A stretch of 64,000 nucleotides of DNA, taken from positions 61,504,001-61,568,000 of the forward strand of contig OX597824.1 of NCBI GenBank assembly GCA_951406725.2, written 5' to 3'. The position numbers and the translations under genes are program-made. Origin of the DNA: Octopus vulgaris. Its lineage: Eukaryota. Under the pieces are notes generated by a model. It made no database searches and had not been told where the DNA came from. It saw only the letters and a list, made by a program, of their open reading frames with translations. Positions 3,146 through 62,449 of this stretch are shown here, one piece after another; within the stretch, counting starts at the first letter, position 1, and every line of letters begins with the position of its first letter.

Positions 3146-3175
<30 letters not shown>

Positions 3176-3178
<3 letters not shown>

Positions 3179-3983
3179 AATTTAAAAATAAGGATAAAAT
3201 CTTTATAAGAAATTATCAGTAGTTAGCGTGAAAAACCTCGTAAGAGAAAAAATCTGTAAATTTTTCCACTTCGAAAATATTTATTTATATTATATAGAGG
3301 GTACTATTATTCATAGGTACCGCACGCTAGGAGGGAGTTTTGCAGTCAAAACTACTAAAATAAACAAATTGTACCGAATGCAAAACTTCAAATCAAGTCA
3401 TTTAAAAACAGAATTTAGTTACATATCACCTGTGATTTCGCAATCAATGCAGAATATACATTCTATGCTCTTCAGTGCAACGAACTCAAGACATATAAGA
3501 AAAAACACAACATTACATACCCGACAGCCAACCGTAGAATTCGCCACAGCATGTACGAATATTTACATATCTATGAAAATGGCGGGCTTATTCGCAATGC
3601 ATTTCGGTAACAACTTGCCTACTCGGAACAAAAATTCAGTATTGAACTATTCCGGTGAAAAATATAAATTTAAAAATAAGGATAAAATATTTATAAGAAA
3701 TTATCAGTAGTTAGCGTGAAAAACGTCGTAAGAGAAAAAATCTGTAAATTTTTCCACTTTGAAAATATTTATTTATATTATATAGAGGGTACTATTATTC
3801 ATAGGTACCGCACGCTAGGAGGTACTTTGCAGTCAAAACTACTAAAATAAACAAATTGTACCGAATGCAAAACTTCAAAGCAAAATGACTTGCTTTGAAG
3901 TCTTGCATTCGGTACAATTTGTTTATTTTAGTAGTTTTGACTGCAAAATCCCTCCTAGCGTGCGGTACCTATAAATAATAGTA

Positions 3984-3985
<2 letters not shown>
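3176..3985 (-). mobile_element. candidate non-LTR retrozyme: 488-bp tandem unit (about 1.45 copies) with inverted 5' arm
   Basis: 3178-3395 repeats at 3666-3883 (period 488); 3788-3883 is inverted at 3890-3985; contains an intact hammerhead; (TA)n on both sides; no credible ORF. Confidence 0.8.
3418..3481 (-). ncRNA. type-I hammerhead ribozyme, intact core
   Basis: GTTGCA-CTGAAGA-GCA(TAGAAT gtat ATTCTG cattgat)TGC-GAAA-TCAC ag GTGA-TA-TGTAAC; all core nucleotides present and stems I, II and III pair. Confidence 0.88.
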
Positions 3986-4030
<45 letters not shown>

Positions 4031-7896: not shown

Positions 7897-9162
7897 ATAT
7901 CTTCATCCCATAACTAATGCGGTTTTCTCAATTGTATGAACTAAAAGTCGGAGGGGGATGGGATAAACTATCTGCATCAAATTGCTATAAAAGGTAGTAT
8001 TTTTACCTTGTACTTATTCCTAGTGCAAGTTTTCGAGAGTGCAGTTCAATTTTGACAGTTATATTTTGAAAGCTATAATAGAAATGACAAAGGAGCATAT
8101 CCGCCATATTTCTATTTATGAGTTCAATAAAAGCAACAACGCAATGGAAAGTGCGAGGAATACTAATGCAGTTTCATGGGAATCGGACAATAAGCGTAAG
8201 CTAGTGTCAACAGTGGTTCCAGAATTTCCGAGCCGGAAACTATTGCCTAAAAGACTAACCTCGTCCAGGAAGATCTGTAGAACCCGATGAGGACGTCCTG
8301 CAAATCTTGGAGGAACAAAATCCCATCGTAACAGTTGAGGAACTAGCAGAGAAGCTTGGATTTGGTCATTCAACCATTCATCGATACCTGCGTGCCATCG
8401 GAAAAACCAGCAAATTGTGTCAATGGGTTCCTATATCGGAGTCTAATTGCTCGCAGAGAGTTCATCTGTGATATTCTTTGCTGTCACTTCTCACGAATAA
8501 ACCTTTTTCCCACCGAACAGTGACTGGTGAGGAGAAATGGGTTCTCTTTAAAAATGTCAAGTGCCGGAGACAGTTGGTAGGGAAAGGAGAAACACCGGCA
8601 GTCCAGGCTAAAGAAGGTCTTCACCAACATATAGTGTTGTTATATTTGGTGGGATATGAAAAGTTTAGTCCACTTTCAACCTTGAAACCCAAACGAAAGG
8701 AGATCTACAGCGAGCAGCTTGAGCGGCTTAAATCAGCGCTTGAAGAACAACGACCATTTTTGATTTCAAGACGAAAGGTGTTCTTCCATCAGGATAATGC
8801 TCGGCCACACAGCGAAGATGACATTCCAGAGGCTGGAGCAGTTCGAATGGGAAACGATGCCGCACCCACCATATTCGCTGGACATTACCCTATCTGATTA
8901 TCATTTAGTCTGTAGTCTTCAAAATCATTTGGATAGAAAAATTATGAATTCTGTAGACAAGATCAGAACAGTACTGGAGGAGTATTTTCGTCACGCACAT
9001 ATGAATCTTGGAAGATGGGTCTTGCAAGTCTATCAGATAGATGGAAGAACATTGTAGAAAATAAAGGAGAGTATATTTTAGATTAAAAGAGGATGATGTT
9101 TATCTTAATTTTGAAAAATAAAAAGTATTAAAAAAATGCATTATTTATGGGATGACCCAATA
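7897..9162 (+). mobile_element. full-length decayed mariner (DD34D) transposon
   Basis: TIRs TCATCCCATAACTAATGC / GCATTATTTATGGGATGA, about 1.27 kb apart; frameshifted transposase at about 8084-9086 with VTGEEKW, FHQDNARPH and PHPPYSLDITLSDYHL. Confidence 0.95.
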
Positions 9163-10897: not shown

Positions 10898-11110
10898 GCC
10901 CACAAGGGGCTAAACATAGAGGGGACAAACAAGGACAGACAAAGGGATTAAGTCGATTATATCGACCCCAGTGCGTAACTGGTACTTAATTTATCGACCC
11001 CGAAAGGATGAAAGTCAAAGTCGACCTCGGCGGAATTTGAACTGAAAACGTAATGGCAGAAGAAATACCGCTAAGCATTTTGCCCGGCGCGCTAACGTTT
11101 CTGCCAGCTA
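10898..11110 (-). mobile_element. tRNA-derived SINE copy (reverse orientation)
   Basis: Reverse complement of 11170-11385. Confidence 0.85.
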
Positions 11111-11162
11111 TATTTTCTCTGTAATTCTCTCAATATTGAATACATTAATATTAGGAGATATA

Positions 11163-11580
11163 GGGCGGCGAGGTGGCAGAAACGTTAGCACGGCTGGCGA
11201 AATGTTTAGCCGTATTTCGTCTGCCGTTACGTTCTGAGTTCAAATTCCGCCGAGGTCGACGTTGCCTTTCATCCTTTCGGGGTCGATTAAATAAGTACCA
11301 GTTACGCACTGGGGTCGATATAATCGACTTAATCCGTGTGTCTGTCCTTGTTTGTCTTCTCTGTGTTTAGCCCACTGTGGGTAGTAAAGAAATAGGTATT
11401 TCGTCTGCCGCTACGTTCTGAGTTCAAATTCCCCCTAGGTCGACTTTGACTTTCATCCTTTCGGTGTCGATAAATTAAGTACCAGCTACTCACTGGGGTC
11501 GATATAATCGACTTAATCCGTGTGTCTGTCCTTGTTTGTCCCATCTGTGTTTAGACCCCTGTGGGCGATAAAGAAATATA
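11163..11580 (+). mobile_element. tRNA-derived SINE followed by a tandem 5'-truncated second copy
   Basis: A-box-like TGGCAGAAACG and B-box-like GAGTTCAAATTCC; 11213-11395 repeats at 11397-11578; same family at 39360, 52411 and 53596. Confidence 0.85.
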
Positions 11581-16344: not shown

Positions 16345-18085
16345 TAATTCTAGAAATAGAGTAGAAAGGGAATCAGTTAAGATTCTGGAAGAGGCAATGG
16401 GGTCAGGCTCTGCATCCAGAATTTCAGCAGCGAGGTTGGCACTCGACCAACATCTCAAAGCTAAACACGAAGGGTGCATTGTCAGGGTTAATTTACGAGG
16501 TGATCAACGTCACCGGATGGGCCTGCGTAGTAGAGAGCTAACGCGGCAACAACGCAACAATAAGGTCTTTGAAGAACAAATATATAATCGATCAGTAAAT
16601 GAACTCGAGGAGATGTCCAAGGTGTTTCATGAGCATTCCACCCAGCTTTTCAGGAAGGGCGGTAGATTTTCCGCGTCGTGGGTTTTCCGCGTCTCTTGGG
16701 GGGCGGGAAGCGGAATGCTGTGAAGGACCGATCACAGCTGCGGAGGTGGAAGAGGCATTGTCGGACTGCAGCGAGGACAAGTCGCCGGAACCTGGTTTGT
16801 CAAGTTTCGCTTTTTCTAGCACTTGTCTCACTTTCCCCCTTAGTTCATCTCCCTGAGCTTTTGGTATCTTTATGGCTATCTCTTCAATGGGGGCTATTAT
16901 GTCCAAATATGGAATGCGCTTGATGGTTGTCGCAAAGTTGAGACCTTTGTTTAGTACTGCTTCTTCAGAGCTTTCTAAATGTCGGTTACTTAGATTACTG
17001 CTTTCACAGGTGGGTGACGGACTTCAGTCTTCATTCTCTGACCTTTGAGTTCCATAACTTCTTAATCTCGTGTATCTTCACCATTTCACATTCTTTCATA
17101 TACGACTTTGCTAGATCTTGTTGGATTCTCTTTCTATCATCATCTCTGGTTATTTTCCTGAGTAATGGAGACATCGTTGTGTCTTGCCCCGATTCGTGGC
17201 CGACCAAGTTGGAACGCATGCTCTTCCGTTTTTTTGTGGGAGGGAAGGGCACCTCATGTAAGGCGCTCTATCTGCTGCCAGACCCACTGAAAGGTGGGCT
17301 AGGGATGCCGTGGTTAAAATACACAGACATGCACTGAGGCTGAAGCACCTCTGGCTCTACCTGGACGGTATGCAGGTGCGGTCTCCGTTCGCTAGACAGT
17401 TGTTTCCAGAGTTCACCTCGTTTATTGAACTGGACCCATGGATTAAGCGTAGACCACAGTTGGGAGCTTGGCACGCAGAGTGTCGTCAGACACTCGTGAT
17501 TCTCTCCCAAGCGGGCAACGCAGGTGGCGGGGGTTCCGCCGCGTTCTTTTACAGAGGGTTAGTAGAGTTTAGATGTGATGCCCTGGGAGAAACCCTGGGC
17601 TTCGATGACAATCAGCTCGCCAGCCTGTTCCGAAGAACATTCGGGCCAGAGTCTTTGGACAATTTCCATAAATCCCTGTTCGGGACAAACTCTTTAGGCA
17701 TGATGCTTCGCCACGCCAACTTGTCCAAGATGCGGTCAGGACAATGAAACTGTCCTACACGCAATTGTGCAATGACCGAAGATATCAGAACTTTGGGTTT
17801 ATGTCGAACAACTGTTGTCGCATCTGAGAAGAGTACGACTGTCAGCCAAATCTATAATTAAGATTGTTCCGCAGTCTTCCCTCAATAGTGAAGAGCAGGT
17901 TTGTTTCCTTTGCGTAGTAGCTACCTCGAAGGAGGTAGTGTGGAAGACGAGAGTGAAAGGGATCATAACAGGTACTTTCATCTCCAGCCTCGGGTTGGTG
18001 AACTTCTCCCTTTTCCATATGAAAAGGAAAATATGGATCGAGAGGAGATGCCTGTCTCACGGAATATTTCGAAAGAGATGTAAAT
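16345..18085 (+). mobile_element. decayed Tx1/L1-clade LINE ORF2 remnant with RT core missing
   Basis: CEGPITAAEVEEALSDCSEDKSP (pre-RT), PLKGGLGMP, C-terminal CxxC...ETVLHAIVQ zinc-knuckle remnant, KEVVWKTR. Confidence 0.8.
16790..17185 (-). mobile_element. Penelope-like element N-terminal fragment, antisense within the Tx1 remnant
   Basis: Minus strand SEEAVLNKGLNFATTIKRIPYLDIIAPIEE...KVRQVLEKAK; the LxKGLNF motif precedes PLE reverse transcriptases. Confidence 0.75.
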
Positions 18086-19765: not shown

Positions 19766-19816
19766 ATAGTACAAATATATAGAGAAACAAAGAAGACAGG
19801 TGTAGGAACAACAAGC
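19766..19816 (-). mobile_element. last ~50 nt of a PLE-family 3' terminus
   Basis: GCTTGTTGTTCCTACACCTGTCTTC...AACTA-like end matches 31394-31445 (+) and 58036-58089 (-). Confidence 0.75.
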
Positions 19817-19911
19817 AAAAATATGGAACGCTTCACGAATTTGAGTGTCATCCTTGTGCAGGGGCCATGTTAATATTCTCTGTATCGTTCCAGTTTTAGA
19901 ATAAGTACTGC

Positions 19912-19912
<1 letters not shown>
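19817..19912 (-). pseudogene. U6: U6 snRNA retrocopy lacking about 11 nt at the 5' end
   Basis: GGCAGTACTTATTCTAAAACTGGAACGATACAGAGAATATTAACATGGCCCCTGCACAAGGATGACACTCAAATTCGTGAAGCGTTCCATATTTTT; ACAGAGA box intact, AGC triad mutated, (GT)n upstream instead of a promoter. Confidence 0.95.
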
Positions 19913-19954
<42 letters not shown>

Positions 19955-21875: not shown

Positions 21876-22403
21876 AGTGTAAGAAGATGGTTAAGCAATA
21901 GTTATTTTAGATAAGATATGAAATGGAAAGTGAAGTGGAGGAATGAAAATAGACGTGAGATATGCAGGGATATTGCATCTGTAGATCCATTATTTAGGCA
22001 GTATGGTATACATATAAGATTCCAATACCTTGTGAGTAAGTTCCAATAGTATTTAAAATTGGTCATTCCAAGTATAGAGTTTGTACACAGTGTTATTGAA
22101 TCGACGGTTTTATTTAAAGTGACTTAAAATCGAGGGATTTTCTTTAAAGCGACTTAAAAGTTGGGACTTCCCAACTTTTAAGACACTTTAATGTCCCCGT
22201 GTACATTTATGCCTAAAATTGTGTCTCGGTAAAGATCCAGAATTTTAGCTGTCATCTTGTTACATGCTTGTCTGGCTAAGAAATTATTATTATTATTATC
22301 TCAACTAACACTGCATAGTTCCTGAAGTAGATCCAACAGAAAAACTGTGTCAGTTTCTACTGAACACTTCAACACACAAATCGACATACAGTCATAAGTT
22401 CAA

Positions 22404-22548: not shown

Positions 22549-24706
22549 AAGCTGGCTGAGAAATTTACTAAAATACTAGCAGAACCAGAGACATTTCCCA
22601 AATCCTACAAAATTACAGACCAATAACTTTTCTCCCTACAATGTACAAAGCCTTTACTGCAATAATATCACAGAGAATGGACAAATACCTGGAAGAAGTC
22701 AATCTGTTTCCAGAAGAGCAAGAAAAGATGCTCTAAGGGCTCATATGGCTGTAAAGATCAGTTACTGATCAATAAAGCCATAACTGAATACAACCGCAGA
22801 AATAAGAAGTGTCTAAGTGTGGTCTGGATCGATTGCCGAAAGGCTTTTAATAGTATTCCCCACACATAAATCCTAGAAACACTAACCGTGAACAAGATAG
22901 CACCAATACATGGCATAGATTACTACAACTCCAGACAAGAGAGGGACAGCTAAATACCAAATCCATCCCCATTAAAAGAAGACTATCCCAGGGAGACACG
23001 CTTTCTCTGCTTCTTTTCTGCTTGACACTGATACCTTTATCTAACATGCTAAATAGAACTGCATGTCCATACAACTGTTTCGGCAAATTAATCAGCCATC
23101 TCTTTTATATGAATGACATAAAACTGTACGCTACAAATGATAAACAGCCGGAAACACAACTACAGATAGTATATGAATTTACTACAGAAATAAACATGAA
23201 ATTTGGCCTAGAAAAATGAGCCAAAGCAACCTTGAAAAGAAGAAAACTAGTTAAGAGTAGTAACATCACACTAGATAAAGAAAATGAAATAAGAGAATTA
23301 GACCAAAGCCAAACATGATAATACTTAGGAATCAATGGACTAGATACGATACAACAAACCCATATGAAAGAGAAGATAAAAAAAGAATACTATAGATGAG
23401 TCAGACTAATACTGAAAAGAGAGCTCAATGCGAAAAACAAGATAATAGGTATTAACACTCTAGCCGTCCCAGTTATAACTGGACTTTAAATGAACTAATC
23501 GAAATCGACAAGAAAACAAAAAAATAATAATAATGACAGGATTTAAGATGCCCCACCCAACATCTGACATAGAAAGACTATATATACAAGGTATCGAAAA
23601 TGGTAGAGGCCTTAAACAGCTAGAAAACGATTACAAAATAACCACCATAGGACTACAGAAATACTTACTTCAGAAGTAAGAAAGACTAATACAAATAGTA
23701 ACAAAACACGAATAAAACAAAAAACTGTTTTCAGTCTTTAAGGAAGCTGATGAATACAAAAAAGAAATCATACCACCTAACAAATATGAAGAAAAAGAAG
23801 AAACAACAAAAGCTGTAAAACAACTTAAATCCAAACTAAAACTGGAACAGCAACGGATAGTGATTAAACGATGGCAAGAAAAGCCACATCATGGCAAATT
23901 CTGGGTTAAACTGAATAGAAAAGAAAATTCTAACAATGACTGAGAAACTCAGGACTCAAAGCAGAGACTGAAGGATTTCTAATTGCACAAAAGATCAAAG
24001 TGTTCCCGCCGGAAATCACCAAAAACACGTAATGAAAAGAAATACATGAATATGTGGATATCGAGAAGAAATAATAAATTAATAAATCATATTGTCTCTG
24101 GCAATATGATTCATTATTTATTCCTTATATATATATATATGGAATATATTCACAGACGCGATAGAGTTGGAACCTAGATATATTAGAAGCTATACCAACC
24201 TTATCGAATAACAAGAGACATAAAATGATATAAGCACACGTCAGAAAAGGTCAGAAAATATGAGTAAGCAACCATATGCTAATACACACAGATAGGGAAA
24301 TTAAGGCCTATAGGCCGGATATAGTTGTCAGAAATCATAAAAAAAGTGCTTTCTAATCGACGTATCAATATCAACAAATGACAATGTTTCTCTAAAAGAA
24401 ACGGATAATCTTTCAAAATACAAAAATCTGGAAATAGAGATAACTCGAATGTAGAGCCTAAAAACAGTAACAATTACTATCATAGAAGGTACATTAGGTA
24501 TGAAGAAAAATATTCAGATAAATACATAAAAAACACAAAGACTAACAAGTATATATAGAACATAGAAAATAAAACTACTAGGCACCGGACACATCCTACG
24601 CAAAACACTTTCATTACAAAGCAAAATAAGAATACCACAACAAACTACAGCACATACCCAAGTCACACATAGTAGTGCAGTGAAAGCGCATGATAAAAAT
24701 AAGACT
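22548..24706 (+). mobile_element. R4/Dong-clade LINE, 5'-truncated and decayed
   Basis: Homologous to 28372-30195; RT (QGDTLS, HLFYMNDIKLY) and REL endonuclease (HRRDRVG, RPDIV) remnants; same 3' UTR. Confidence 0.92.
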
Positions 24707-25240
24707 AGATGCAGTACCAGGCAGTGGTTCTCATGGCTTCTGATCTTAACTGATTGGAAGTGTTATCATGTACATTTTTATGTCTTGGTATAAAAGATGG
24801 GCTACAGCATATATTCTGCTCAATACGACAGATTTTCTTGTCTGTTGTTTGACCTTAACAAGTTGAGCATGTCCCTTAGTGGCTGACGATATGTGCATCT
24901 CTGATCACAATCAGAAATAGTGTGGGAGCATCATAGCCATTTGTTGAAAAGAAATTGTTTGGGGTTTGGATAATTTACCTTTGGAAACATGAGTGTTTCG
25001 TTTAACATCCTTAAACAACCCTTATTCGGGGACATTTTGAGCGGGATGGGCTACTTGACCCGACGGAAATTCTAACTGGGCCCCACCTGCAAGATCATAC
25101 GCCGTTTATCTTGATATGTGATCACCATGTTGTGCACGTTTGGTTGTGATGCATGTACCTGGTGTACCATTATCAGACGGGTAGCCATGACAGGTATACT
25201 AGGCTTCGTGTCACTTTTATGGCATGCACTGCTCTCTCAC

Positions 25241-25241
<1 letters not shown>
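24707..25241 (+). repeat. interspersed repeat ending in (TAA)n, probably the 3' UTR of another Dong-like family
   Basis: Non-coding block ending directly in (AAT)n at 25242-25286; family assignment is inference. Confidence 0.5.
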
Positions 25242-25286
<45 letters not shown>

Positions 25287-26454
25287 GTAATGGAGGGCGA
25301 GGAATGATGCAGGTAGAACTGTGCTATAAAACGTCCACAATAGCAATGAACAAGTATTTATCTAATATAGAGGATGGGATGCTGCGGCGTGTGTGCAAAT
25401 ACGAAAGCAGCAAAAAACACCTTCTATTGTCATGGACGCTTGCCAATTAGGAAGGGAACTTGGAATTAACCCTGAATTAGATGAAGAAGCTGAAACCACT
25501 GCTACCCAACAAGGAAAACGGATCGAACAGTCTGCAAGAAAGAACGGACAGAAACAAATAAAAGAGTGGTGGAACCAGAAGCCTCTGCATCGACAGTATC
25601 TACTTCGGAGCCGAAGTAACAACCCATCAGTGGTTGAGAAACGCAAGACCGAAAGTAGAGATTGAAGGTTTCATATTGGCGGTACAAGACCAACGCTTGC
25701 TTACCAAAACTACCACGCTAACGTTCTTCAAAACAGTTCTGACCCTAAATGCAGATTCTACGAGACATTTGACGAACAATAGACCACCGTCTCGGGATGT
25801 CCTGTGCAGACACTAAACGAATACAAAATTCGCTACGATAGGGTAGGACAGTATTGACATTCGAAAAATATGTAAACACTACAGAATCAACACTCCTGCT
25901 TAATGGTATAAGCATCATCCTGAGATCGTCGTTGAAAATAAAATTTCACTATCCTCTGGGATTTTCCAATCAATATCGACAGAACAATCCAGGCTAATCA
26001 ACTACACATAGTAATTAAAGACAGGGAAGAAAGTTCATATAGACTAATAGATGTAAGTATTCACACTGATAAAAATATATCTGTGAAGGAATTTGACAAA
26101 TTAAGTAAATAAGGGCCTGGAAATTGAAATACAAAATATGTGGAATCTCAAAGCGATCACTGTTCCTGTTATTGTGGGTACCTTATGTATGATAAGAAAG
26201 GGATGTCAAAAACATCTAGATAATATCTCAAGAGAACCATGTCTCAGAGAAAGATTGTGCTATGTACTACCCATATCCTTAGAAAAATCCTATTAATTTA
26301 AATGTTTGTGTTCTATTACATGAAGATATTTAGCTACTGCTCCTGCTACTTACCTAGCTTTCAGTCATACTGTAACATCACTTATCCTACACTCGCCCTA
26401 GGAAACTGGGTGTGTCTCAGTAAGTGATTGTAACAAACATTCAGATTAAAACTA
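25287..26454 (+). mobile_element. R4/Dong-clade LINE, second subfamily, 5'-truncated
   Basis: NGGRGMMQVE, KPLHRQY, EIEGFILAVQDQ, RYDRVG, TILWDF, LIDVSI; (TAA)n on both sides. Confidence 0.88.
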
Positions 26455-26476
26455 AATAATAATAATAATAATAATG

Positions 26477-26585: not shown

Positions 26586-29500
26586 GAGAGAGAACATCGG
26601 GGACGTTTAACATGTGAGAGCGAAAAAACAGTGGCTCCGAAATATATCCACAAACATCAGAAACAAAAACATTGTATGGAGCTAAAATATAACTGACAAA
26701 GGATTGGACTATATCCGAGTAAGTAATACTCATTGAAATTTATTGCTATTTTCCAAACGAAATGATGTATTTTAACTCGATAGCACATGTAAACATGCTT
26801 GATACATTACGATCCATCATCACCAGATCATCTCCGGCCCCAAACACCATGTACAAAAAAACTACGAATAAATTAAAGAATACCGGTATTATTCAACCCA
26901 AGAATAACAACCGGGAAGTACGTACTTTGAACCTGTTACAAAAAAAGTACGAAAAACTACGCGTGTAAAACAATGTGACAACAGAAATGAACGGATCGGT
27001 ACCCTACGAAAATGACGACCGTCAAAATAATGGGCCGGACGTTATTCCTCATGTCCTGCAAATAAAACCAAAAAGGCATAAATGGACACGTGAGGAATAC
27101 ATTTCAATCCTACACGCTTACTTTACAGCAGTGTTCTACCCAAAGAGCGAAAACACAACGACATATACATATAAAATATGGAAGCAAAATAACATAAATA
27201 AAGACCTGGATATAGCAATGAACCCTAATAACCTAGCTAACGTGCGAAAATATATTCTCAACGCAAAGAAAATATCAGGAATAGAAATAGAACATTTAAA
27301 AGAAACAATACACCAGGAAAATATAGATAGAAGCCACACAACAATGACAAATACTATTAACACTGAAACAGTAAAACACGAAGACAAACGTAACACTTCC
27401 AACAAAAACGATGTAAACAAAAAACAACAAACCCAGACCGTAAGGATACATAATAATACACGACAAACAACAATCCAAAACACGACAAACAAACATACGA
27501 ATGAGAAAGAAAGCGACACAAATCTAAAGCCTGGAAACAACGAAGGGGAGCCTAATGATTATGATGTTATAAAAAGTAGAATAATCAAAGAACTGAAAAC
27601 CACAGAGCTCAAAATGGAACACCGACAATACATCCCAAAAATAAATATAGACAAAACAACAACATCAATTATAAACAGCATAAACCTAGCCGTCAAGGAA
27701 CTAATAGCCACTGAAACAAAAAGCGATATCACTGAGCTAAATAACTTAGTATACGCAGCAGCCACTGCAGCCACAGAAGAAGCTCGATACTCACTCAAAC
27801 CCATCCAAACAGGAGTACCACCACCCAAACAAACCCTGTGGATAAATAACATCCAAAACAAAATACAAAAAATGAGAAAAGATCTGTCGATTCTAAATGA
27901 AATCAGTAGACAATCAACGCTACTAAGCAACAAAAAGAAAACAAAAATACTCCGAAAATACAAGACAAAAAAGATTTACCTGAGATAAAAGAAAAGCTAA
28001 AGCAAGATATCCTTGCCAAAGCACAAAGGATCCGCCGGTACGAGAAACTCCAACGTTTCTTTGAACAAAACAAACAGTTCAACTCCAATCCCCAAAAGTC
28101 CTACCAAGAATTTGGCAAAAATAAAATAGAAATCACTGTAGCGCCAACGGTGGAAGAAGTGGAAGAATTCTGGAGAGAAATATGGTCGGCGAACGAACAA
28201 CCAAAAAAAAAAAAAAGGAGTATTAAAACAACAAACTCAGCATCTGAGGAACTTTGGACCCTCATAACAACTGAAGAGGTCATCCAGGGACTGCAAAAAC
28301 TAAGCAACTGGAAGGCACCTGGGCATGACAAGATCCCCAACTTCTGGTTGAAATATCTGACAGGAGTGCACAAAAAGCTGGCTGAAAAATTTAACAACAT
28401 ACTGGCAGAGCCAGAGACAATGCCTGGATGGCTCACGAAGGGGAAAACCATCTTAATTCCCAAATCAAATGAGACAGCAAAACCAGAAAACTACAGACCT
28501 ATATCCTGTCTCCCTACAATGTACAAAGCATTTACTGCAGTAATATCACAAAGATTGAACAAGCACCTGTACGAAAACAAACTGTTTCCAGAAGAGCAGA
28601 AAGGATGCCGCAAAGGCTCATATGGCTGTAAAGATCAACTAATGATCAATAAAGCCATAACTGAAGACAGCCACAGAAAGAAGAAAGGCCTCCGTATGGC
28701 CTGGATCGACTACCGAAAGGCGTTTGATAGCATCCCCCACACATGGATCCTCGAAACACTAGCCATTAACAAAGTTGCACCAACAATTATAAAATACATA
28801 GGACACTCTATGAATAAATGGCAGACAGTGCTACAGCTCCAAACATAAGAGGGACTTGTAAAAACCAAAGTCATCCCCATTAGAAGAGGAATATTCCAGG
28901 GAGACACGCTCTCTCCACTCCTTTTCTGCTTGGCACTGTCACCTCAATCGGATATGCTAAACAGAACTGAATGCAGATATAAATGTTACGGCAAAACGAT
29001 CAGCCACCTTTTATATATGGATGACCTAAAACTATACGCCACAAATGACAAACAGCTGGAAACACTACTAAAGACAGTTCATGGATTTACCAAAGAAATT
29101 GATATGAAATTTGGATTGGAGAAATGCGCCAAAGTAACCCTGAAAAGAGGAAAACAAGTTAAGAGTAGCAATAGCACACTAGATAAAACCAATGAAATAA
29201 AAGAATTAGACCAAAGCCACACTTACAAATACTTATGAATACATGAACTAGATAAGACACAACACACACAAGCGAAAGAGAAAATAAAAAAAGAATATTA
29301 CAGACGAGTTAGATCAATACTGAAAACAGAGCTCAATGCTAAAAACAAGATAATAGGTATGAACACTTTAGCCGCCTCTTCATGGCAAATACTGGACTAA
29401 ACTAAATGCAAAAGAAACAGACAAAGAAAAAGCCCAGCAATGGTTGAGAAGCTCAGGACTCAAAGCTGAGACAGAAGGATTTTTAATTGCAGCACAAGAT

Positions 29501-30200
29501 CAAAGCCTCCCCACCAGAAATTACCAAAAACATGTAATGAAAAGAAATATAACAAGTAACTGCAGAATATGTGGAGATGGACAAGAAACAATAAATCATA
29601 TTATCTCTGGCTGCCCAGTCCTGGCTAAGAAGGAATATATTCACAGACACGACAGAGTTGGGACCTATATACACTGGAAGCTATACCAAGATTATGAAAT
29701 AACAACAGAAAAAAGATGGTATAGGTACACACTTGAAAAGGTCACAGAAAACGAGAAAGCAACCATACTCTGGGATATGCCAATTCACAGAGATAAAGAA
29801 ATTAAGGCCAACAGACCAGATATAGTTGTCAGAGATCATGAAGAAAAAAATGCTTTCTAATTGATGTATCAATACCAGCAGATGACACCGTGTCTCTAAA
29901 AGAAATGGAGAAACTTACAAAATACAAAGACCTGGAAATAGAGGTAACCAGAAAGTGGAATCTAAAAACAGAAACAATTCCTATCATAAAAAAATATTCA
30001 GACAAATACATAACAAAGACATCAGGACTTACAAACACATCTAACATACAGAAAATTGCACTACTAGGCATTGCACACATCCTACGCAGAGCACTTTCCA
30101 TACAATAACCATCACAACAAATCATAGCACATACTCAAGGCACACAGAGCTGCGCCCGGTAGGGAAGTGAAAGCACGCGAAAAAAAATATACTACTGAAC
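26586..30200 (+). mobile_element. near full-length R4/Dong-clade LINE (RT plus restriction-like endonuclease), inactivated
   Basis: Frameshifted single ORF 26975-30108: RHKWTREE N-terminus, NWKAPGHD, NYRPISCL, WIDYRKAFDSIPH, QGDTLSP, HLLYMDDLK, CRIC..ETINHIISGC, RHD, NRPDIV, KxxKYKDL; flanked by (AAT)n at 26455-26585 and 30201-30293. Confidence 0.96.
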
Positions 30201-31249: not shown

Positions 31250-31446
31250 GTTATCCCTAAACATTTCCTTCTCTCTCTGTTATTTTTTCGTTTTCTTTCC
31301 GTTTTTCCCCTCTTAATACTTTCCTTCGAAGAGCGGAGGTTTGAAACGTCAAATACTTCTCCTTTCTTCCTGAGCGTTAACCTAATACACCTGCTTGTTA
31401 TTCCTTCACCTGTCTTCGTCTTTTGTTTTCAGTAAATTTGAACTAT
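31250..31446 (+). mobile_element. solo PLE 3' terminus with decayed minimal hammerhead (31320-31353)
   Basis: TTT-CCTTCGA-A-GAGC ggag GTTT-GAAA-CG-TC-AAA; homologous to 58036-58200 (-). Confidence 0.7.
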
Positions 31447-31877
31447 TCACGTATGTTATTTCATTTCAGAAATACAACATTCACTGGTGATCTCACATTG
31501 CTTAAGATATTCGCGCGTGAATTAAAATTTTAAAAACTAAAAGTGCAAACCACAGGAGCCAAATAGTAGAAATATTAAATATATTTTATAGACAATGCAA
31601 TTGTTGGTATGTTCGTTGGTTGATAACATCATTTTGAGAGAGCAGGAGAGAGATTAAAAGAGAGATACCACAGAGACTTAACAGAAAGGTTGATGGCACA
31701 AACTAGACTTGGTGACAGCTTTGAGCAAAGGAATGCTACATGCTTACACCGTGTGAGAAAATTGTTTTAGAGAACTTGAAGGAAATGGAGGAGGAAGAAC
31801 AGGTAGAAAAAGAAGAGGGGTAGTAAACGGAAGGGTAGATGGATGTAGATAGAACAGGCTCTGCAATAATTAATATA

Positions 31878-33135
31878 CGAGGAGTGTTCATTAAAGAATT
31901 TCTCTGACTCACTCACCAATTCTTGCAGGAAACGGAACTTGAATAGGTATTATCATACATATTCCTACATGACAAATTATAAATTGCCGCTTTCCTCTAG
32001 TATTAGTTTGTCTCTTACGGCTGCTAAAATGGACGAAGATGTTATAATGGAGGCAATTCAATGCAGATCAGTGATGATGTTCTTATACTTGAAAGGTCAT
32101 ACACAAAAAGAGACTTTCGATGAGATGAAAGATGTTTATGGTGACGATGCACCATCATACAACGTAGTTAAGCACTGGCACCGCCAGTTCAAATGTGGTC
32201 GGACATCAGTGGAAACTACTCCTATACCTGGACGACAACATACCGCCATTGATGACAACACTATAAAGTGGAAGCCACCATTTTGGTGGATCGTCGCGCA
32301 TAACTATTCAGTAACTAGCACAAGAGGTGAAGATAAGTTTATGGTCCGTGAAAAAAAGATATTCACAACCATTTGTACATACGGAAGTTGTCTGCACAAT
32401 CGATTTCCCGGATGCTCACACCGTTTCAGAAGTAGGAACGAGTCAATTACGCCCAGGTTCAATGCGCCAAAAACATGAGGAAGACCTTTTCGTCAGACTT
32501 ATAACACAGGATGAAACATGGGCCCATCACTATGATTCTGAGACTAAAGTCCAGTCGAAGCAAGGAAAGTATGATAACTCACCACCTCCAAAGAAGGCTC
32601 GTATTCTCAGCTGGCGAGGTGATACTCACAGTCTTTTGGGACCAAAGTGGAGTAGTGACGATGGATTTTCTGGCAAAGGGCACTTTAATTAACGGGGAAT
32701 ATCTTTTCTCTGCTGAAAAAATTGCGGGATGCATCTAAGCAGAGAGGTGAGGCGTGCTGATCAAAGGAGTCCGCCTCCTTCAAGACAACTCCCCAATTCA
32801 CAATGCGCATGTTGCCCAGATGAAAGCACACTCTTGCGGTTATAAAATTCTTCATTATCCCCCTTACTCTCCCGACCTCGCACCATCTGGCTTTCACCTC
32901 AAAAAACATGAAGTGTTTTTTGAAGGGGAAGCACTATTTGGATGTTGATCAACTTATTTCCGAGGTAAAGTCTTGGCTCCTGACGCAACCTATCGACTTC
33001 ACATCTGCATAAAGCGTTAGAAGTTTGACAGCATTGTTGGTGGCTATGTAGAGAAGGACTAATAATTATGCCAAGCTTCGTTTATCCCAGTTTTTGGGAA
33101 GTGGGTCAAGAAAAATCTTTAATGAACACCCCTCG
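31878..33135 (+). mobile_element. full-length decayed mariner (irritans-like), TA-flanked
   Basis: TIRs TA|CGAGGAGTGTTCATTAAAGA and TCTTTAATGAACACCCCTCG|TA; ITQDETWAHHYD, LLQDNSPIH, YPPYSPDLAPSGF; frameshifts. Confidence 0.95.
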
Positions 33136-39568: not shown

Positions 39569-40970
39569 TTTATATTATGTTTGACTCTTTGCGTCACACA
39601 CAATAATATACTGCCTATGCTTGTCTGACTATAACTTATCAATCAAATCTTTACTCCCATGACATTATTATTAATAACAGAGTACCAAGTCAAGATTGCA
39701 GTCAGACTGATTTTACCATACATGTTTTAGAGAAGGATATGATATGTATACACATTTGGCCAAATATGTGGCTTTGTAGCTGTTTTAATAACCAATATTG
39801 TATCAGAGTTTAGTTCTGAGTGAGCACATCTGTTAAAATCGTTAACATTACATCTTTTTAGGCATACATTATTTCACAGTACTCTTCTGAATACATCTTT
39901 CTGTTTTTATTAAGACACTAAGAATTATTTTGATATATTTGAGTGGTATATTTAGAATGTTGAATGATTAATTTAGGGGCATCATCATAGATTAAAATGA
40001 TCAATGTTTCATAGGAATAAATATTTTACGAATGTGACAGGCAGAATCACTACAGTGTCAAACAAAATGTTCCACTATATTTCAAAGTACACAACGTTCT
40101 GAATTCAAACTCGGATGACGGCATTTCAACTTAAAGGAGTCAATACAATTTCGTCCTTTACAGTTTAATACTTGCGATGATTTAAAAGACCTTCGTCTGC
40201 CCTCACAACTGTAATCTAGTATAAACGGAGCGTTTAGGCGTATAAAATATTAATCTAATCCTGGATAAAACGCTAGTCTTTCGTAGTGATCTTTCTCTCA
40301 CAGAATTAACACAGTTCTGCATTACAAACACAAATTATTTGCTATTTCTGTTGGTGATGACATATACCACCTCGAAGTTTTGTGAACTCTGCAAAATATA
40401 ATGACCCAATGACTTGCTTACGAACCAGCATTGGAAACTAAATGTGGTTGTTTGTCCTGTTAAATATAGCAGCCAAATATTCATTAAATCCCATGATATA
40501 CACTCAAGCTTGGTCAAATAAGAGAACTGACGACAAACTGGAATGTCATTGATTATATGTCAGATCGATCAAGCAGAGTAAAAAGATAAGGAATACAAAC
40601 AAAAAACCACCACTACTATCACCGCCACCATCATCATCACCAGTGATGGCTGATAGGACTAACTTTTCAGCTGCTAAGTGCGCAACCAATTCCGCGATCT
40701 GTAACGAAGTTAGCAGAGTCAAATATTTATTCGTGTATGACATGTGAGAAGGCCAAGCAAAATATATTTATCATATTCGTGTGAAAGCAGGCGTTTTATA
40801 ATTTGTATCATTGCAGCACATTAGGAATGTGTCTTCTGGTATTAGCTTTATGAGTGGAATTTGGTGCACGGATTCACGAATACACTGAGAAGTATAGTTA
40901 CATATGCACAAATATATAGAAATATAATACTGTACACTTCGGGTATATATATATATATATATATATATAT

Positions 40971-42185
40971 CGAAGTGTACAGTATAATATATCCATCACG
41001 GCTGATCTTACCAATCGGTTTCGCGCTAGGGGTACAACGGAATTTTGGTAACAATCTAATTATATAACTCTACGCTCATCAGACGTAGCCGATATGGAAT
41101 GAAATATGGCAACTGATCTCTATTGTTGGAGGTGACAGAACGCATCCAGCTTGCGGTTGCTGTGAAAAGATGATGAAAGGAACCGGGTAGGGGATTTACC
41201 AATACATCGCCACTGGTTGGTTATGCTGTAAGTTGATAAGAGCTACTATGAAGTGTTTGTGGGAATTGTAAGCGTCTTTCAGCTTGGTGTTCTTGTGAAA
41301 GTGGGATATGTGTAGTGATACTGTATAACTTTTGCAGGAGATGTAGGCATCCATTACTGTGTTCATTAGAGTGTTTTCTTTCTATATTGGTTAAGGTATG
41401 GGGGCTTTATGTGTGCATTGAGTGTGTGTAGGGGTACAATATGTGTGGGAGTTTATATGGGAGGTGGTGGGAAACGATCCTTTTGGTATGTGTCCGCCGT
41501 GTTGGGGCGTACATGTTTGTATGTGGGTGCGTTGATGAATGCTCTGGTCAAACTCTTTGCCGGATTCCAGAGTATTGGAGGAGAGCTGAGGCTGGAGGAC
41601 TGATGATCGTAGTCATGATGGGGCATGCTCGAATGATCTTCCTTTCATGTGGGCTAGGGTTAAATACTTCACCTCTGCTATTCAGATAAATACATGGATG
41701 CTGGGTGCTCTTTAAAATCGCTTTCTCATCTAGGAATAGGCTGCACTTCCTGCTGCTATTAAAGTACGGTTTACATTTCTCCAGGATATTCTTCTTTATG
41801 TTCTACTCAGTGTGTGTGGCTTTCTTTCAAAGATGAAACGTGCTTTGGTCAGGGTTGTGGCGTTGCGTCTCTGTGAGATGTCAAAGGAGGACTTGTGGTT
41901 GTTGAAACGGATTCTGAAGGGGCCTTGAGTTATTCCTACATACTTTCGCATATTCGGTTGCCCATTTGATCCTATAGCTGTTGCCCCTGCCTTATATACA
42001 ACGGTCTCCGTGTTACAGTGGCCATTCAGTGGACATGTGTTACCCCTACATGAGCATTCTGCTTTTGCCTCGGGCGTTGGTCTACATACTAAAATCTTTT
42101 TTACATTAGGTGCACAGGTATAGGAAATTCTTAGGGTATGCCTATTGAATATTTTGTCGAATCTATTTGTACGGGTGAAGCTAAG
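40971..42185 (-). mobile_element. Penelope-like element 3' part (GIY-YIG endonuclease, 3' UTR, hammerhead)
   Basis: KIFNRHTLRISYTC...CSCRGNTCPLNGHCNTETVVYKA...KYVGITQGPFRIRFNNHKSSF; ends in (TA)n. Confidence 0.88.
40999..41091 (-). ncRNA. type-I hammerhead ribozyme, intact core
   Basis: CGGCT.acgT-CTGATGA-GCGTAG...CTAGCGC-GAAA-CCGATTGG-TA-Agatc.AGCCG. Confidence 0.8.
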
Positions 42186-42299
42186 AAAAGTTTACTCGGG
42201 TTGTAATATTTCAGGAGAGAAATTTATTAATTTCAGAGAAGTACAAAGCTCTAATCACCTTCAAAATAGGATCCTCTAACTTAAATGCACTTGTAGCGC

Positions 42300-48157: not shown

Positions 48158-48255
<98 letters not shown>

Positions 48256-48271
48256 ATGTATGTATATATGT

Positions 48272-48980
48272 ATAAAAGTTACTATATGAAAGCATTATTT
48301 CTGTTAAAAACAATAATAATGAGGCGGTTAGCAAGACTTCTACATTAAGAGGTATAATATTCAATATTTGAATAAAAGAAGGGTAAAAATACCGCTTGCC
48401 AAAGATGAAAGCGAAAGCTTCAAAAACACCAATCCTACGATAAATACACACACGAGCAATGCAATGAACACTTTAAAAAATAAGCCTATCTTTAGGATGG
48501 AATTTACACATATCAATATTAATTGATTTCATGCTGTGCTTGGCAAGCGGTATTTTTACCCTTCTTTTATTCAAAACTTTAATATTATACCTATAAAGGT
48601 AGAAGTCTTGCTAACCGCCTCATTATTACTGTTTTTAACAGCAATAATGCTTTCATATAGTAACTTTTTTATTGTTTACGATAGTTTTCCCTGTAAACGG
48701 AGTGGGACGTTTAAAGTTCGAAACGGACACGAGTTGAATATTTTGGAAATAGATGTTACTATCCCCAGCTGAAGATTGCAAAGCATGTTTTCTCATGCAC
48801 AGCTTGAAACCAATTGATATTGGGGTATGTAAACTATCTTCAAATTCCATCCTGAAGGTAGGCCTACTATTTAAAGTGTTCGTTGCATTGCTCGTGTGTG
48901 TATTTATCGTAGGATTGGTGGTTTTTGAAGCTTTTGCTTTCATCTTTGGCAAGCAGTATTTTTACCCTTCTTTTATTCTT
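48272..48980 (+). mobile_element. candidate non-LTR retrozyme: 406-bp unit (about 1.1 copies) with inverted 5' arm
   Basis: TTGGCAAGC(G/A)GTATTTTTACCCTTCTTTTATTC at 48540 and 48946; 48272-48539 is the reverse complement of 48797-48978 continuing into 48540-48668; contains a hammerhead; microsatellites on both sides. Confidence 0.78.
48763..48825 (+). ncRNA. type-I hammerhead motif
   Basis: CCCCAG-CTGAAGA-TTGC aaa GCATG ttttct CATGC aca GCTT-GAAA-CCAATTGA-TA-TTGGGG; the partial inverted copy implies consensus stem III ATCAATTGAT and stem II TGC/GCA. Confidence 0.78.
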
Positions 48981-49023
48981 ATATACATACATACATACAT
49001 ACACACATACATACATACATACA

Positions 49024-49056
<33 letters not shown>

Positions 49057-54795: not shown

Positions 54796-55069
54796 GTGAC
54801 GTTATGTTTATATTGCATGGAGTTATCGTTGTATTTATTTTCAGGAGATTTCTAAATAAGGGGAGGTAGTGAGTGATTTCTTCCGGTGTAAGGGAGATAA
54901 TCGCTTAAAATTTTTTTTCCCTATATATATGTATATATATCTAGACACATATATGCATACATATATATGATATATAGATATATCTGTATACTGTATCTAT
55001 ATCTATATCTATATCTATCTATCTCTCCCCCTCTCTCTCTCTATATATATATATATACATATATATATA

Positions 55070-55712
55070 ATGTTCGTAATGGTGTCTACAAATGACTGCC
55101 AGGACTTTTTGATGTTTCTGATGTTAGTGGGTGTGTATGTGTGCGTGAAGGACCAATCGACTTGTGCAATGTCATTATTGATCGCTTCCCAGTATGCATT
55201 GTGGAAATCCATAGTGTCAAATGGATGAACAGGAGGGATGACATTTGTTTTGCATTTTGGCCGGTGAAATCTCAGATCACAGAGAACCATGTCATGATCA
55301 GAGAGTAGAGTTTTCTCCACTGCAACATTATGGATAGTATCAGTGTGATTGCTGAAAATTAAGTCTAAGACGTTTTTGTGACATCTCGTTGGTTCGAGCA
55401 CCAATTGGAACAGGAAGAAATCATCCATGAAGTCAAGAAGCGATTCCACTGCCTCCCTTGCAGGGGTTGAGAGAGAAGAACCTGGCAGCAGACTGTTTGT
55501 AGACCAGTCAACCCCGGGAAGGTTGAAGTCTCCCATCATTAAAATGTTGTCAGGTTGACACTGCTGATTGAAACACTTTATGTTGTTGAGGCATTCCTTG
55601 AAGCATGGTAGGGGCGTTTGGGGTGGTCTGTAGAGCCCAACTACTGTTACGTTGTTGGTTTGACTGAATACAGCGACTGCTTTGCAAACACACCCCATTA
55701 AGATCTGCAAAT
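55070..55712 (-). pseudogene. APE endonuclease segment of a CR1/L2-group LINE (inverted 5' part)
   Basis: VVGLYRPP, MMGDFNLPGVDW, PTR..NVLDLIFSN, LSDHDMV. Confidence 0.92.
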
Positions 55713-57312
55713 AAATCTAAGTGTCGAATCCCTAGAAATAGAAAATCTCTCATCAGGAAAATTAAAAGAATTAACAAAAAAATCAACAAGCTGAAATACT
55801 GTCAACAGCAACACACCAACCTGACTGTCATCTCGTCGCTAGAGATTAAAAAACAAACTCCAAAACAACATGATGTCTATCATCAATAGTCAGAGAAGAG
55901 CTGAAGAGGCCTGGGCCATTGAGAAGATCAAACTCAATCCCAAAGTGTTCATTTCATTTGCAAAAAGACACAGAGTCACTGGTTCTACTGTTGGCCCTCT
56001 GATTGAAGAAAATGGTACTCTTCAAGACAATGCCAAAACCATGGGAGAGATATTGCAGAAACAATATTGCTCTGTTTTCTGCAATCCTGATATGACTGAT
56101 CTGGGCTGTATCAGTGATGTTACTCCCCAATACACTTTATCAGACATAACCTTTGGCGCTCCTGATGTGTTAGCAGCAATAAAGGAAATGAAGCATAATT
56201 CAGCAGTAGGTCCCGATAGTTTCCCTGCTTGTGTCTTGAAGATGTATCAACACCAAATTGCACCCCCTCTAGCCAATCTGTGGCGGAAGTCACTGGATGC
56301 TGGATATATCGCAGAAGACCTTCTATCCCAGTCTGTTGTCCCAGTTTTCAAGAAAAGAAACAAATCGCTTGCCGTGAATTACCGTCCAATCTCACTCACC
56401 TCTCATATCATTAAGGTATTTGAGAGAGTGCTGAGATCGCGTATGACTCACTTCCTTGAGAGTCATAATATGCTGAACTCCAACCAGCATGAATATATGA
56501 ATATATATATATGGATTCCATTTTGATGACATTTTGAGAGCCTTGGGAGAGGGTTCCAACACTGATGTCATCTACCTTGATTTCAGCAAGGCCTTTGACA
56601 AGGTTGATCATAAGATCCTTTTGAGAAAGCTGTCCAATATTGGTGTCACTGGAAAGCTACTGCAGTGGATCAAGTGCTTCCTGTCTAACAGAACCCAACA
56701 TGTTGTAGTCGAAGGAGTCAAATCCAGCCCAGCCAAAGTCAGCAGTGGTGTCCCACAAGGCATTGTGTTGGGCCCACTTCTCTTCATCATCTACATTAAT
56801 GATATTACTGACACCATCAAACACAGTAACATCATAACCTTCGCTGATGATTCCAAGCTCCAGAAGGTCATCAATGGCGTGGATGTATTCACTCCAACGA
56901 CGCCGTGAACGCTACATTATATGTATGATGTGGAAAATATTCCATCAGCACTGACCGAATGATGTTGGCATCACCTTCAAAATACATCCAAGGCTTGGAC
57001 CACGTGCCATCCGTCCACAACAAAAATCTAAAGCGCATCACATAACGACAATACGGCACAATTATTTCACCTCAATTGGACCCGCTCTCTTCAACATTAG
57101 ACCAGGACACGTCAAAACAGAAACTGACCACACAAAATTCAAGAAGTCTTTGGACAAATTCCTTCAAACAGACCCGGACAAACCACCCACACCCGGATAT
57201 GTCTCCGCAAACAATAACTCTCTGCTCGAATGGGCCTCGGTGCTCAAATCCTGAATTGAAAGATTTCGCCAGGGCAAATACTGGCCAAAACCTTTCTAAG
57301 TTATTCTAAGTT
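55713..57312 (+). mobile_element. CR1/L2-group LINE RT and 3' end with internal deletions
   Basis: SAVGPDS, NYRPISLTS, VIYLDFSKAFDKVDH, SGVPQGIVLGPLLF, FADDSKL; tail TTCTAAGTTA twice, then (TA)n. Confidence 0.93.
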
Positions 57313-57918: not shown

Positions 57919-58035
57919 ATTAACTAATTTTTATTCACTGTAGTGGTTTGGGTTTAACTGTTCGTTTTAGCATATAATGTCTTCTCTCCGGTATATAAAT
58001 CTTTATACTCTTATGAATATATATATATATATATA

Positions 58036-61000: not shown

Positions 61001-61050
61001 TCAAACGTCGTGATATTTTGGAGCGATTTTTCATCAACGGAAGGGTCCAG
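58036..61050 (-). mobile_element. Penelope-like element, about 3 kb, decayed; no GIY-YIG seen
   Basis: FLPKIYNPN, METRMGPNYGSLFV, YGRYIDDC, VAFLDISV, PYSQFHLL; decayed hammerhead at 58127-58162 (TTT-CAGTTGA-A-GAGC gtag GCTC-GAAA-TG-TA-AAAG); (TA)n at both ends. Confidence 0.9.
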
Positions 61051-61073
61051 TGGATTCCATAAGTGTGTGTGTT

Positions 61074-61132
<59 letters not shown>

Positions 61133-61312: not shown

Positions 61313-61511
61313 TATGAATATTTACAAACGCACACACACACTAACCCCCCCCCCCACATATCCGAGTGAGTAGACAAACAAAAGAAGAGTACTCAACACA
61401 TTTCTTGAGTGTTACATGTATAGATCAAAACAGTTTGATTCAGACTCCTTGAAACTCTGAATTACAAGGACTCTAATTCGAACTGTTTTGATCTAGCCAT
61501 TTATCAATCAG

Positions 61512-61809
<298 letters not shown>

Positions 61810-62029
61810 ATACACATATCTATGGTAATTAAGAATTAAATCAATTAGAGGTGAAATCCGGGTGGAAAAAGAATTGCATGAATAATCGGTAAATACGATT
61901 CATTAGATTAACATATTTGTAGAATAAGAAGTGAAAAAGTATAAATTTCCAAAATTTCGTACTATTTAATTACGCTCAACTGCTGTTTGATTAGCAATAA
62001 TCCTAAATTTCATAATTACGTAATTGGGA

Positions 62030-62225
62030 TCTGTCTCGGCGATTTACCTACCCCCATGGATAATAACCCCCAAGGACAATTGCCCCTGAGGACAGCAGAT
62101 GATGATTTAAAACTTCTTTGTATATTGGAGAGTTGGTAATTAACCAAGGTCGTAATTGTCCTAGGGAGAAGTTGTCGTAGGTAATTGTCGCATGAAGGAA
62201 ATTGTCCTGATATGAATTGCGATAC
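62030..62225. mobile_element. possible MITE remnant with GGACAATT/AATTGTCC subrepeats
   Basis: GGACAATTGCCCC on the left and several AATTGTCC/AATTGTCG on the right. Confidence 0.4.
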
Positions 62226-62449
62226 ATAATTAAAATTCATAATAAATCTAAAATCATAATACTTTGAGTGATTTGGGATACAAATAGCTTTCAATTAATT
62301 TAAATAAATTTAATTCATTATATATCACAATTGCCTAATTATGGAATTTATTCTGGTTATTGCTAATGAAACAGATGTTGGATGTAATTGAATTGCGAAC
62401 TATGTCTAAAATTTATGCTTTTCTGATTTTGAGTTCTTTCCATCTCTTG

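Follow-up and report, generated by a model that had tools for sequence, protein, structure and literature searches.

How an insertion can come to carry a palindrome at its 5' end while both of its 3' ends face TA microsatellite DNA is the question raised by positions 3179-3985 of a 64,000-nucleotide stretch of Octopus vulgaris DNA (this whole stretch is referred to as the window).

Structure of the Insertion at 3179-3985

The near-perfect palindrome described in an earlier note on this DNA is confirmed, with arms (3788-3883 and 3890-3985) that are identical at 92 of 96 positions (mismatches at 3800, 3823, 3825, and 3871), flank a 6-nt gap (3884-3889), and fold as a DNA hairpin at -99.4 kcal/mol. 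Self-BLAST identifies the palindrome as the 5' junction of an 807-bp insertion (insert 1), in which 1.45 copies of a 487-488-nt unit are joined head-to-head with a 102-nt inverted copy (3883-3985 is an inverted copy of 3403-3300). The features are as follows:

3157-3178, unstranded: left (TA)11 target tract, a pure repeat, of which 3174-3178 also match the unit
3179-3883, minus strand: main body, non-coding unit x1.45, 3' end at the left
3174-3396 and 3662-3883: direct repeat, 7 differences in 223 columns (96.9%), period 487-488
3788-3883, minus strand: left palindrome arm, the 5' end of the main body
3884-3985, plus strand: inverted 5'-truncated copy, unit positions 3403 to 3300, including 3884-3889
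3986-4026 (pure 3987-4026), unstranded: right (TA)20 target tract, in register with the TATATA patch of the unit

The 6-nt gap, read in the earlier note as a spacer, is not a separate segment; it is the arm reading 6-7 nt deeper into the unit (equivalent to 3397-3403). The head-to-head junction (3883|3884) shows 1 nt of homology, at 3883, and the 5' limit of the arm falls at the exact centre of the unit hexamer TTTAAA (3401-3406). Palindromes of at least 6 nt are centred at 12 of the 488 unit positions, and 7.4% of positions lie within 1 nt of such a centre. At the 3' end of the main body there is a 5-nt TA microhomology (3174-3178), a length of at least 5 nt being available at 6 of the 488 unit positions, while the unit TATATA patch begins 3 nt past the 3' end of the arm (such a run occurs within 0-3 nt of 4.3% of positions). 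Pure (TA)n tracts with n of at least 5 number 42 and occupy 1.8% of the window. The outer 3' ends of insert 1 correspond to unit positions 121 nt apart.

The earlier note had offered two explanations for the mismatches between the arms, namely age and derivation from two template molecules. Comparison of the three copies over their 96 common columns finds two private differences in each copy, and the arm pair (4/96) is as alike as the direct repeats (7/223; Fisher p 0.74). The mismatches thus look like age, this star pattern being what neutral ageing of about 2% per copy from one template sequence would give.

Hammerhead Motif and Reading Frames

A single candidate ribozyme was recognized in insert 1:

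3481-3418, minus strand: type I hammerhead motif, core CUGAAGA...GAAA, stems of 6, 3, and 5 bp

A strict descriptor requiring stems of at least 5, 3, and 4 bp found one match in the real window and none in 200 shuffled windows. The predicted cut lies between 3424 and 3423, and the two 5' limits of insert 1 are 20 and 27 nt downstream of it. Rfam returned no hammerhead match, either at the gathering score or at E<=10, and the folding z-score of the motif is 0.11; the call therefore depends on the descriptor. Rfam matches of miRNA type were rejected as generic hairpin scores lying under their own gathering thresholds.

The assumption of the earlier note that the hammerhead strand is the sense strand agrees with both PLE remnants of the window in which a coding stretch and a hammerhead-like motif occur together:

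40971-42191, minus strand: decayed Hydra-clade-like PLE, with a GIY-YIG fragment (41799-42191), a CxCx4C linker, and no CCHH
58018-61080, minus strand: decayed PLE, identified by eye, that retains an RT catalytic stretch (58866-59339)

In each of them the motif shares its strand with the ORF and lies 5' of a (TA)n end; at 58 kb it was recognized by eye. With this orientation both 3' ends of insert 1 point outward and abut pure (TA)11 and (TA)20, as had been proposed.

The sense frames of both inserts described here (insert 1 and the second insert below) are closed, with no ORF for RT and GIY-YIG. The antisense strand of insert 1 holds a stop-free frame of 170 codons (3198-3710, plus strand), a length reached in 0 of 2000 shuffles. 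Pfam gave no family match for 3198-3707, and phmmer gave one weak match for the 3198-3710 frame (P0002, E 8e-8), at 34% over a stretch of 43 residues that recurs six times. The frame is not treated as a gene because it needs base 3337, which is present in one of the three copies; it is not fully explained.

A Second Insertion at 48274-48978

The earlier note had assigned the same geometry to 48272-48980. The following features were found at this locus (insert 2):

48209-48273, unstranded: left flank, a compound microsatellite of (TA)17 followed by degenerate TG/TATG repeats
48274-48539, minus strand: inverted arm, unit 48797-48945 continuing into 48540-48668
48540-48978, plus strand: main body, 1.08 copies of a 406-nt unit
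48540-48572 and 48946-48978: direct repeat, 33 bp with 1 difference
48756-48832, plus strand: degenerate type I hammerhead-like motif, CUGAAGA at 48769, GAAA at 48806, 5-bp stem III
48979-49053, unstranded: right flank, T(TA)3 followed by (CATA)n

The proposed orientation holds (head-to-head, with 3' ends outward), but a tight, near-perfect fold-back is absent: the inverted repeat spans 129 bp (48274-48402 and 48540-48668, 93.8%) around a 137-nt spacer derived from the arm, with 24 mismatched columns out of 278 between the arm and the main body. The anchoring of both 3' ends in TA microsatellite is likewise only partly borne out, in that the flanks are degenerate TA/TG and TA/CA repeats rather than pure (TA)n at the ends. 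Its left end borders on TAT-G-(TA)3 and its right end on T-(TA)3-(CATA)n; no pure tract comes closer than the (TA)17 at 48209-48242, at a distance of 31 nt. TA microhomology is lacking at the main 3' end and amounts to 0-2 nt at the arm end; the outer 3' ends lie at different unit positions, 96 nt apart.

The junction of insert 2 has 0 nt of homology and coincides with no palindromic hexamer of at least 6 nt, and the arm starts ~28 nt upstream of the expected cut. In main-body coordinates, the arm extends 149 nt beyond the adjacent main end in the 5' direction of the unit. It crosses the head-to-tail unit junction 48572|48573, which must therefore have been present in the template; the 406-nt unit is accordingly a true monomer, read as a multimer or a circle. 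The hammerhead is non-canonical in the main copy (a U.U at the base of stem II and no cleavage triplet) and fails the descriptor; a U.U base has also been reported in the axolotl retrozyme hammerhead (PMC7229834). The 3' half of the motif also lies within the arm. Many arm differences break pairs of the predicted fold of the main copy, giving no sign of structure conservation in this insert.

Insert 1 and insert 2 show no sequence relationship (62 of 100 shuffles reach their score), and no third copy of either family occurs within the 64-kb window. A 22-mer of family 1 had 0 matches in prokaryotic genome contigs, which says little because the collection searched is prokaryotic. Both units are low in GC (31% and 35%) and fold as circles better than shuffles (z -3.6 and -2.4; 60 shuffles each), and in both inserts the direct repeats lack a hammerhead, the motifs lying outside them. 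An inverted 5'-truncated copy stands directly at the 5' end of each insert with no bases between, and at both loci the spacer is in the orientation of the arm and holds unit sequence that is missing from the 5' end of the main body. None of the four insert ends carries poly(A). A MITE or other TIR DNA transposon in TA was rejected, since the partner of the arm begins ~100-120 nt inside the opposite end and is not terminal.

Fold-back reads yield near-identical arms, and assemblers need overlap. Against an assembly or fold-back read artefact, which seems scarcely credible here, the arms are 4% and 6-11% diverged, each has sequence that its neighbour lacks, the junction overlaps of 1 and 0 nt are too short for contig fusion, the window contains no N, and two unrelated families share the orientation. 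In favor of an artefact, tandem and inverted structures of PLEs are reported to trouble assemblies (PMC8557442).

Origin of the Inverted Arms

The favored reading, to which a probability of about 0.68 is given, is that a trans-acting, (TA)n-targeting PLE enzyme cut both strands of the target, that both 3'-OH ends primed on a template longer than one unit, and that the two cDNAs were joined head-to-head. Each insert would then be one retrotransposition event of a non-coding, hammerhead-bearing, retrozyme-like PLE derivative, with a (TA)n-targeting PLE reverse transcriptase/GIY-YIG endonuclease supplied in trans. The template would be a multimeric transcript or a circle of more than one unit, for which insert 2 provides direct evidence and which is presumed by extension for insert 1. 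Both strands of the TA tract would be cleaved in a staggered manner (for which another PLE offers an in vitro precedent), and the two target 3'-OH ends would start cDNAs at separate internal points of the unit, as suggested by the two different outward-facing 3' ends. The cDNAs would next be joined head-to-head with 0-1 nt of homology, the junctions being visible and the process presumptive, and neutral ageing would follow, apparent in insert 1 as the star pattern with ~2% per copy. Either a single RNA, through twin priming that leaves a long internal duplication, or a pair of RNAs may have been the template.

The link to PLEs made in the earlier note is upheld for both inserts, as a partial tandem, an inverted 5'-truncated copy, and a (TA)n target constitute the published PLE signature. 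The outer ends of each insert are different unit positions, and therefore neither end was copied from the other; priming at both target ends is plausible. That two cDNAs were primed from opposite strands of a cut TA tract, as the earlier note held, survives as the most economical reading, whereas its argument from the TA flanks does not, because any insertion into one tract gives TA on both sides. The overlap of the arms, previously taken as a sign of a circular or multimeric template, is no evidence for a circle, because internal duplication is known from single-RNA twin priming and yields overlap as well; nor does the overlap call for two RNA molecules. Evidence for such a template comes instead from the main bodies, which exceed one unit, and independently from the insert 2 arm where it crosses 48572|48573. 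The insert 1 arm crosses no unit junction, and there a template jump between truncated copies might have produced the 488-nt period in place of a true monomer. Both inserts formally fit the internal-duplication class, with an RNA of ~1.45 units each by our own arithmetic. Classical abutting twin priming was rejected, the arm and main body overlapping by 96 and 129 bp.

A different course of events would begin with a single priming, after which the cDNA or an antisense template would self-prime, copy back ~100-270 nt, and join the far TA flank by microhomology, the centre later being trimmed asymmetrically. This seems unlikely, although several observations are in keeping with it: the two 5' limits of insert 1 are 6-7 nt apart (~3% by chance, own arithmetic), and the TATATA patch by the end of the arm might have served for joining just as it might for priming. 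Additionally, self-priming on an antisense template is favored for the head-to-head palindromes of rotifer PLEs (PMC3846280), and asymmetric central deletions are reported to stabilize palindromes (PMC8701086). The orientation of the loop weighs against fold-back, as it follows the arm at both loci, so that an extra deletion on the main side (at least 7 nt and at least 149 nt) would be needed twice. Furthermore, the arm pair of insert 1 is no more alike than its direct repeats, in the comparison given above.

Two independent insertions into one TA hotspot, the later one abutting the 5' end of the earlier one in reverse orientation, would leave a similar outline, and the divergence between copies is where this account is most readily weighed. 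The copies of insert 1 are equally diverged. The 24 differences in 278 columns between the arm and main body of insert 2 might point to separate insertions, with weak clustering (P 0.025-0.07 by variance and 0.09-0.63 by maximum) and one alignment-dependent compensatory pair in stem III (48810/48823). This excess divergence is not significant (p 0.49 against 1/33 in the direct repeat; p 0.18 against 4/96 in the insert 1 arms), and the arm is identical to the main 5' repeat at 33 of 33 positions. No TA remnant is present at either junction, and neither family has a further copy in the window, which likewise argues against repeated insertion, making this account distinctly improbable, even though a high-copy SINE-like family of the window also has a head-to-head neighbour (10899-11578).

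Rearrangement of the DNA after insertion, through template switching during replication or the repair of a cruciform at the TA tract, is considered very unlikely. The self-complementarity of (TA)n counts for it, and a tail-to-tail repeat of 20 nt around (TA)13 (40922-40990, described below) could be such a product. Weighing against it are the unit sequence that the arms contain and the adjacent main 5' ends lack, the absence of duplicated unique flanking DNA, and positions 3823 and 3825, at which the arm agrees with the distant copy (A) and not with its neighbour (B).

Several findings also count against the favored reading of priming at both target ends. It draws on only two inserts, one per family, and no sequence link leads from them to any coding PLE of the window. 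The distances between 3' ends (121 and 96 nt) differ from the 30-40-bp 'tail' of PLEs, insert 2 is without TA microhomology at its main 3' end, and the direct repeats, in contrast to typical pLTRs, are without a hammerhead.

A more specific version is doubtful: a dimeric enzyme might prime both ends of the cut TA tract on ribozyme-bearing circles or multimers, with cDNAs that stall near the hammerhead and anneal at a short palindrome before the centre is trimmed. At insert 1, cDNAs ending near the ribozyme-cut 5' end would anneal at TTTAAA, and one side would later be trimmed by 8 nt; had the tract remained paired, such staggered nicks might instead have produced the tail-to-tail repeat at 40922-40990. 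The hints for this version (the distances of the insert 1 limits from the predicted cut, the arm end at the hexamer centre, and the start of the insert 2 arm near its expected cut) are post hoc and come from one or two loci.

Comparison with Known Elements

The architecture of the inserts has close counterparts amongst PLEs, whose insertions frequently form partial tandems, carry a 5'-truncated copy in inverted orientation directly at the 5' end, and have a (TA)n bias (PMC8557442). Two direct 218-bp pLTRs with a shorter, adjacent inverted one and palindromes at the junction are described in PMC3846280, which reports the same arrangement around cargo moved in trans, and hammerhead pairs on opposite strands, 100-700 bp apart, have been recorded (PMC4209133). 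Almost all families of the Hydra clade insert in (TA)n, and the formation of the tandem and inverted ends of PLEs is stated to be undefined (PMC8557442). The inserts resemble the EN+ PLEs (Penelope/Poseidon, Neptune, Hydra, and Naiad) in the partial tandem, inverted 5'-truncated copy, junction palindrome, (TA)n target, and type I hammerhead, which is degenerate in insert 2 (PMC8557442, PMC3846280). They differ from them in lacking an RT/EN ORF, in their unit of 406-488 nt, in direct repeats without a hammerhead, and in 3' ends that are 96-121 nt apart, compared with an optional tail of 30-40 bp in the published descriptions.

Like metazoan non-LTR retrozymes, the inserts are built of small, non-coding, low-GC units with a type I hammerhead (a degenerate one in insert 2), arranged head-to-tail and folding well as circles (PMC7229834, bioRxiv 10.64898/2026.07.22.740005). 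The unit of insert 2 (406 nt) is inside the reported retrozyme range of 150-450 bp, and that of insert 1 (487-488 nt) is just outside it. Unlike retrozymes, the inserts contain 1.45 and 1.08 units and one hammerhead each, while the definition of an 'active' retrozyme calls for two or more hammerhead-bearing units in tandem (bioRxiv 10.64898/2026.07.22.740005). Because this two-unit definition fails, the inserts are called retrozyme-like non-autonomous PLE derivatives. A search of openly available main text (PMC7229834 and bioRxiv 10.64898/2026.07.22.740005 included) found no statement on inverted arms on retrozymes.

In L1 5' inversions, an internal duplication is present in 283 of 1,703 cases (17%), with a median of 22 bp (bioRxiv 10.1101/2024.08.27.596794), and self-annealing gives inverted duplications at L1 sites (bioRxiv 10.1101/2024.12.14.628481). 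The inserts share with L1 twin priming, as published, the proposed priming of both target ends, the head-to-head join, an arm that extends further 5' than the main body, and the overlap at the inversion point. They are unlike it in the absence of poly(A), in overlaps of 96 and 129 bp against that median, in a probable template of more than one unit, and in the microsatellite target.

The purified Anolis Poseidon protein (PAc) cleaves and extends both strands of AT-rich targets, starts internally on RNA, and is predicted to be a dimer, and hammerhead cleavage is dispensable for its insertion in vitro (PMC11167929). The inserts are similar in the apparent cleavage and extension of both strands, the AT-rich target, and the internal initiation. 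PAc has two fixed adjacent start sites that are not homologous to the target (PMC11167929), unlike the ends of insert 1, which show UA microhomology.

The palindrome alone is ordinary, because its architecture is already known from PLEs; what is modestly new is the PLE insertion signature on ORF-less, retrozyme-like units. Animal retrozymes have so far been tied to PLEs by common ribozymes, co-occurrence, and phylogeny, and an integration footprint specific to PLEs on units without an ORF supports that tie independently. The short units also let every junction be mapped in unit coordinates, which bears on how PLEs form tandem and inverted ends, a question that two loci alone do not settle. If stalling near the hammerhead proved to be true, tiny ORF-less families would make the inversion step of PLEs testable genome-wide.

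Other Retroelements and Repeats in the Window

The Hydra-like remnant has a type I hammerhead at 41082 and a 3' end at (TA)13 (40944-40969). A relative of its 41799-42191 fragment (P0001) has 64% identity and a CxCx5C linker, and full-length relatives of the 41-kb endonuclease numbered 0 among 84 longer candidates and 1 among 6 candidates of similar length. Judged from its sequence, the remnant fits the Hydra clade and would exemplify the kind of enzyme able to act in trans. The similarity of its 3' region to inserts 1 and 2 is not above that of shuffles, and it is not established as their partner, because it is similar to neither. At the same 3' end, a 20-nt inverted repeat (19/20 identical) is arranged tail-to-tail around (TA)13 (40922-40990); its short copy has two extra bases before the tract, and the geometry is opposite to the head-to-head inserts.

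The PLE at 58-61 kb has a degenerate minimal hammerhead near 58150, a (TA)10 3' end, and (TA)23 at its 5' side; Pfam gave no match for 58018-61080. Related pLTR pieces occur at 31310-31446 (plus strand) and 19766-19817 (minus strand). A full-length U6 snRNA copy (Rfam, 94.5 bits) is fused to the 3' end of the latter (19766-19922, minus strand). The pLTR fragment ends at this join in a short TA repeat, and the join lies ~45 nt downstream of the ribozyme position rather than at it; 19766-19922 is possibly a U6-PLE chimera. On the minus strand at 16592-17023, within other decayed retroelement sequence, is a candidate fragment of a Penelope-type RT N-terminus, which it resembles in a motif; it gave no Pfam match, and no repeat or visible 3' end was seen. 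Leaving out this fragment (16.6-17.0 kb), six hammerhead- or pLTR-type inserts were counted (inserts 1 and 2, 41-42 kb, 58-61 kb, 31310-31446, and 19766-19817). A TA-type repeat end is present in five and a tail-to-tail repeat in one, and a 5' inverted arm is carried by two of the six, a proportion that counts against the mechanism proposed for the inserts.

Amongst the other repeats, a SINE-like 184-nt tandem dimer at 10899-11578 has an inverted copy (211 nt, 90%) lying head-to-head with it beyond a spacer of 61 nt, outside any TA tract, with further copies of the repeat at 39372, 52449, and 53603. Non-LTR retrotransposon remnants with RVT_1 and zf-RVT are found at 26969-30149 (plus strand), flanked by (AAT)n tracts at 26455 and 30201, and at 22549-25715, an older related copy (66-74%). 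A LINE remnant at 55015-56908 has its endonuclease and RT parts on opposite strands and TA repeats at 55042-55069 and 56502; it is possibly another 5' inversion. Older palindromes or inverted repeats lie at 61406-61510, 22144-22191, and 61935-62422 (78%, 88%, and 74%, respectively), two of them adjoining microsatellites, and Mariner-type transposase fragments (Transposase_1, HTH_48) are present at 8472-8897 and 31870-32478.
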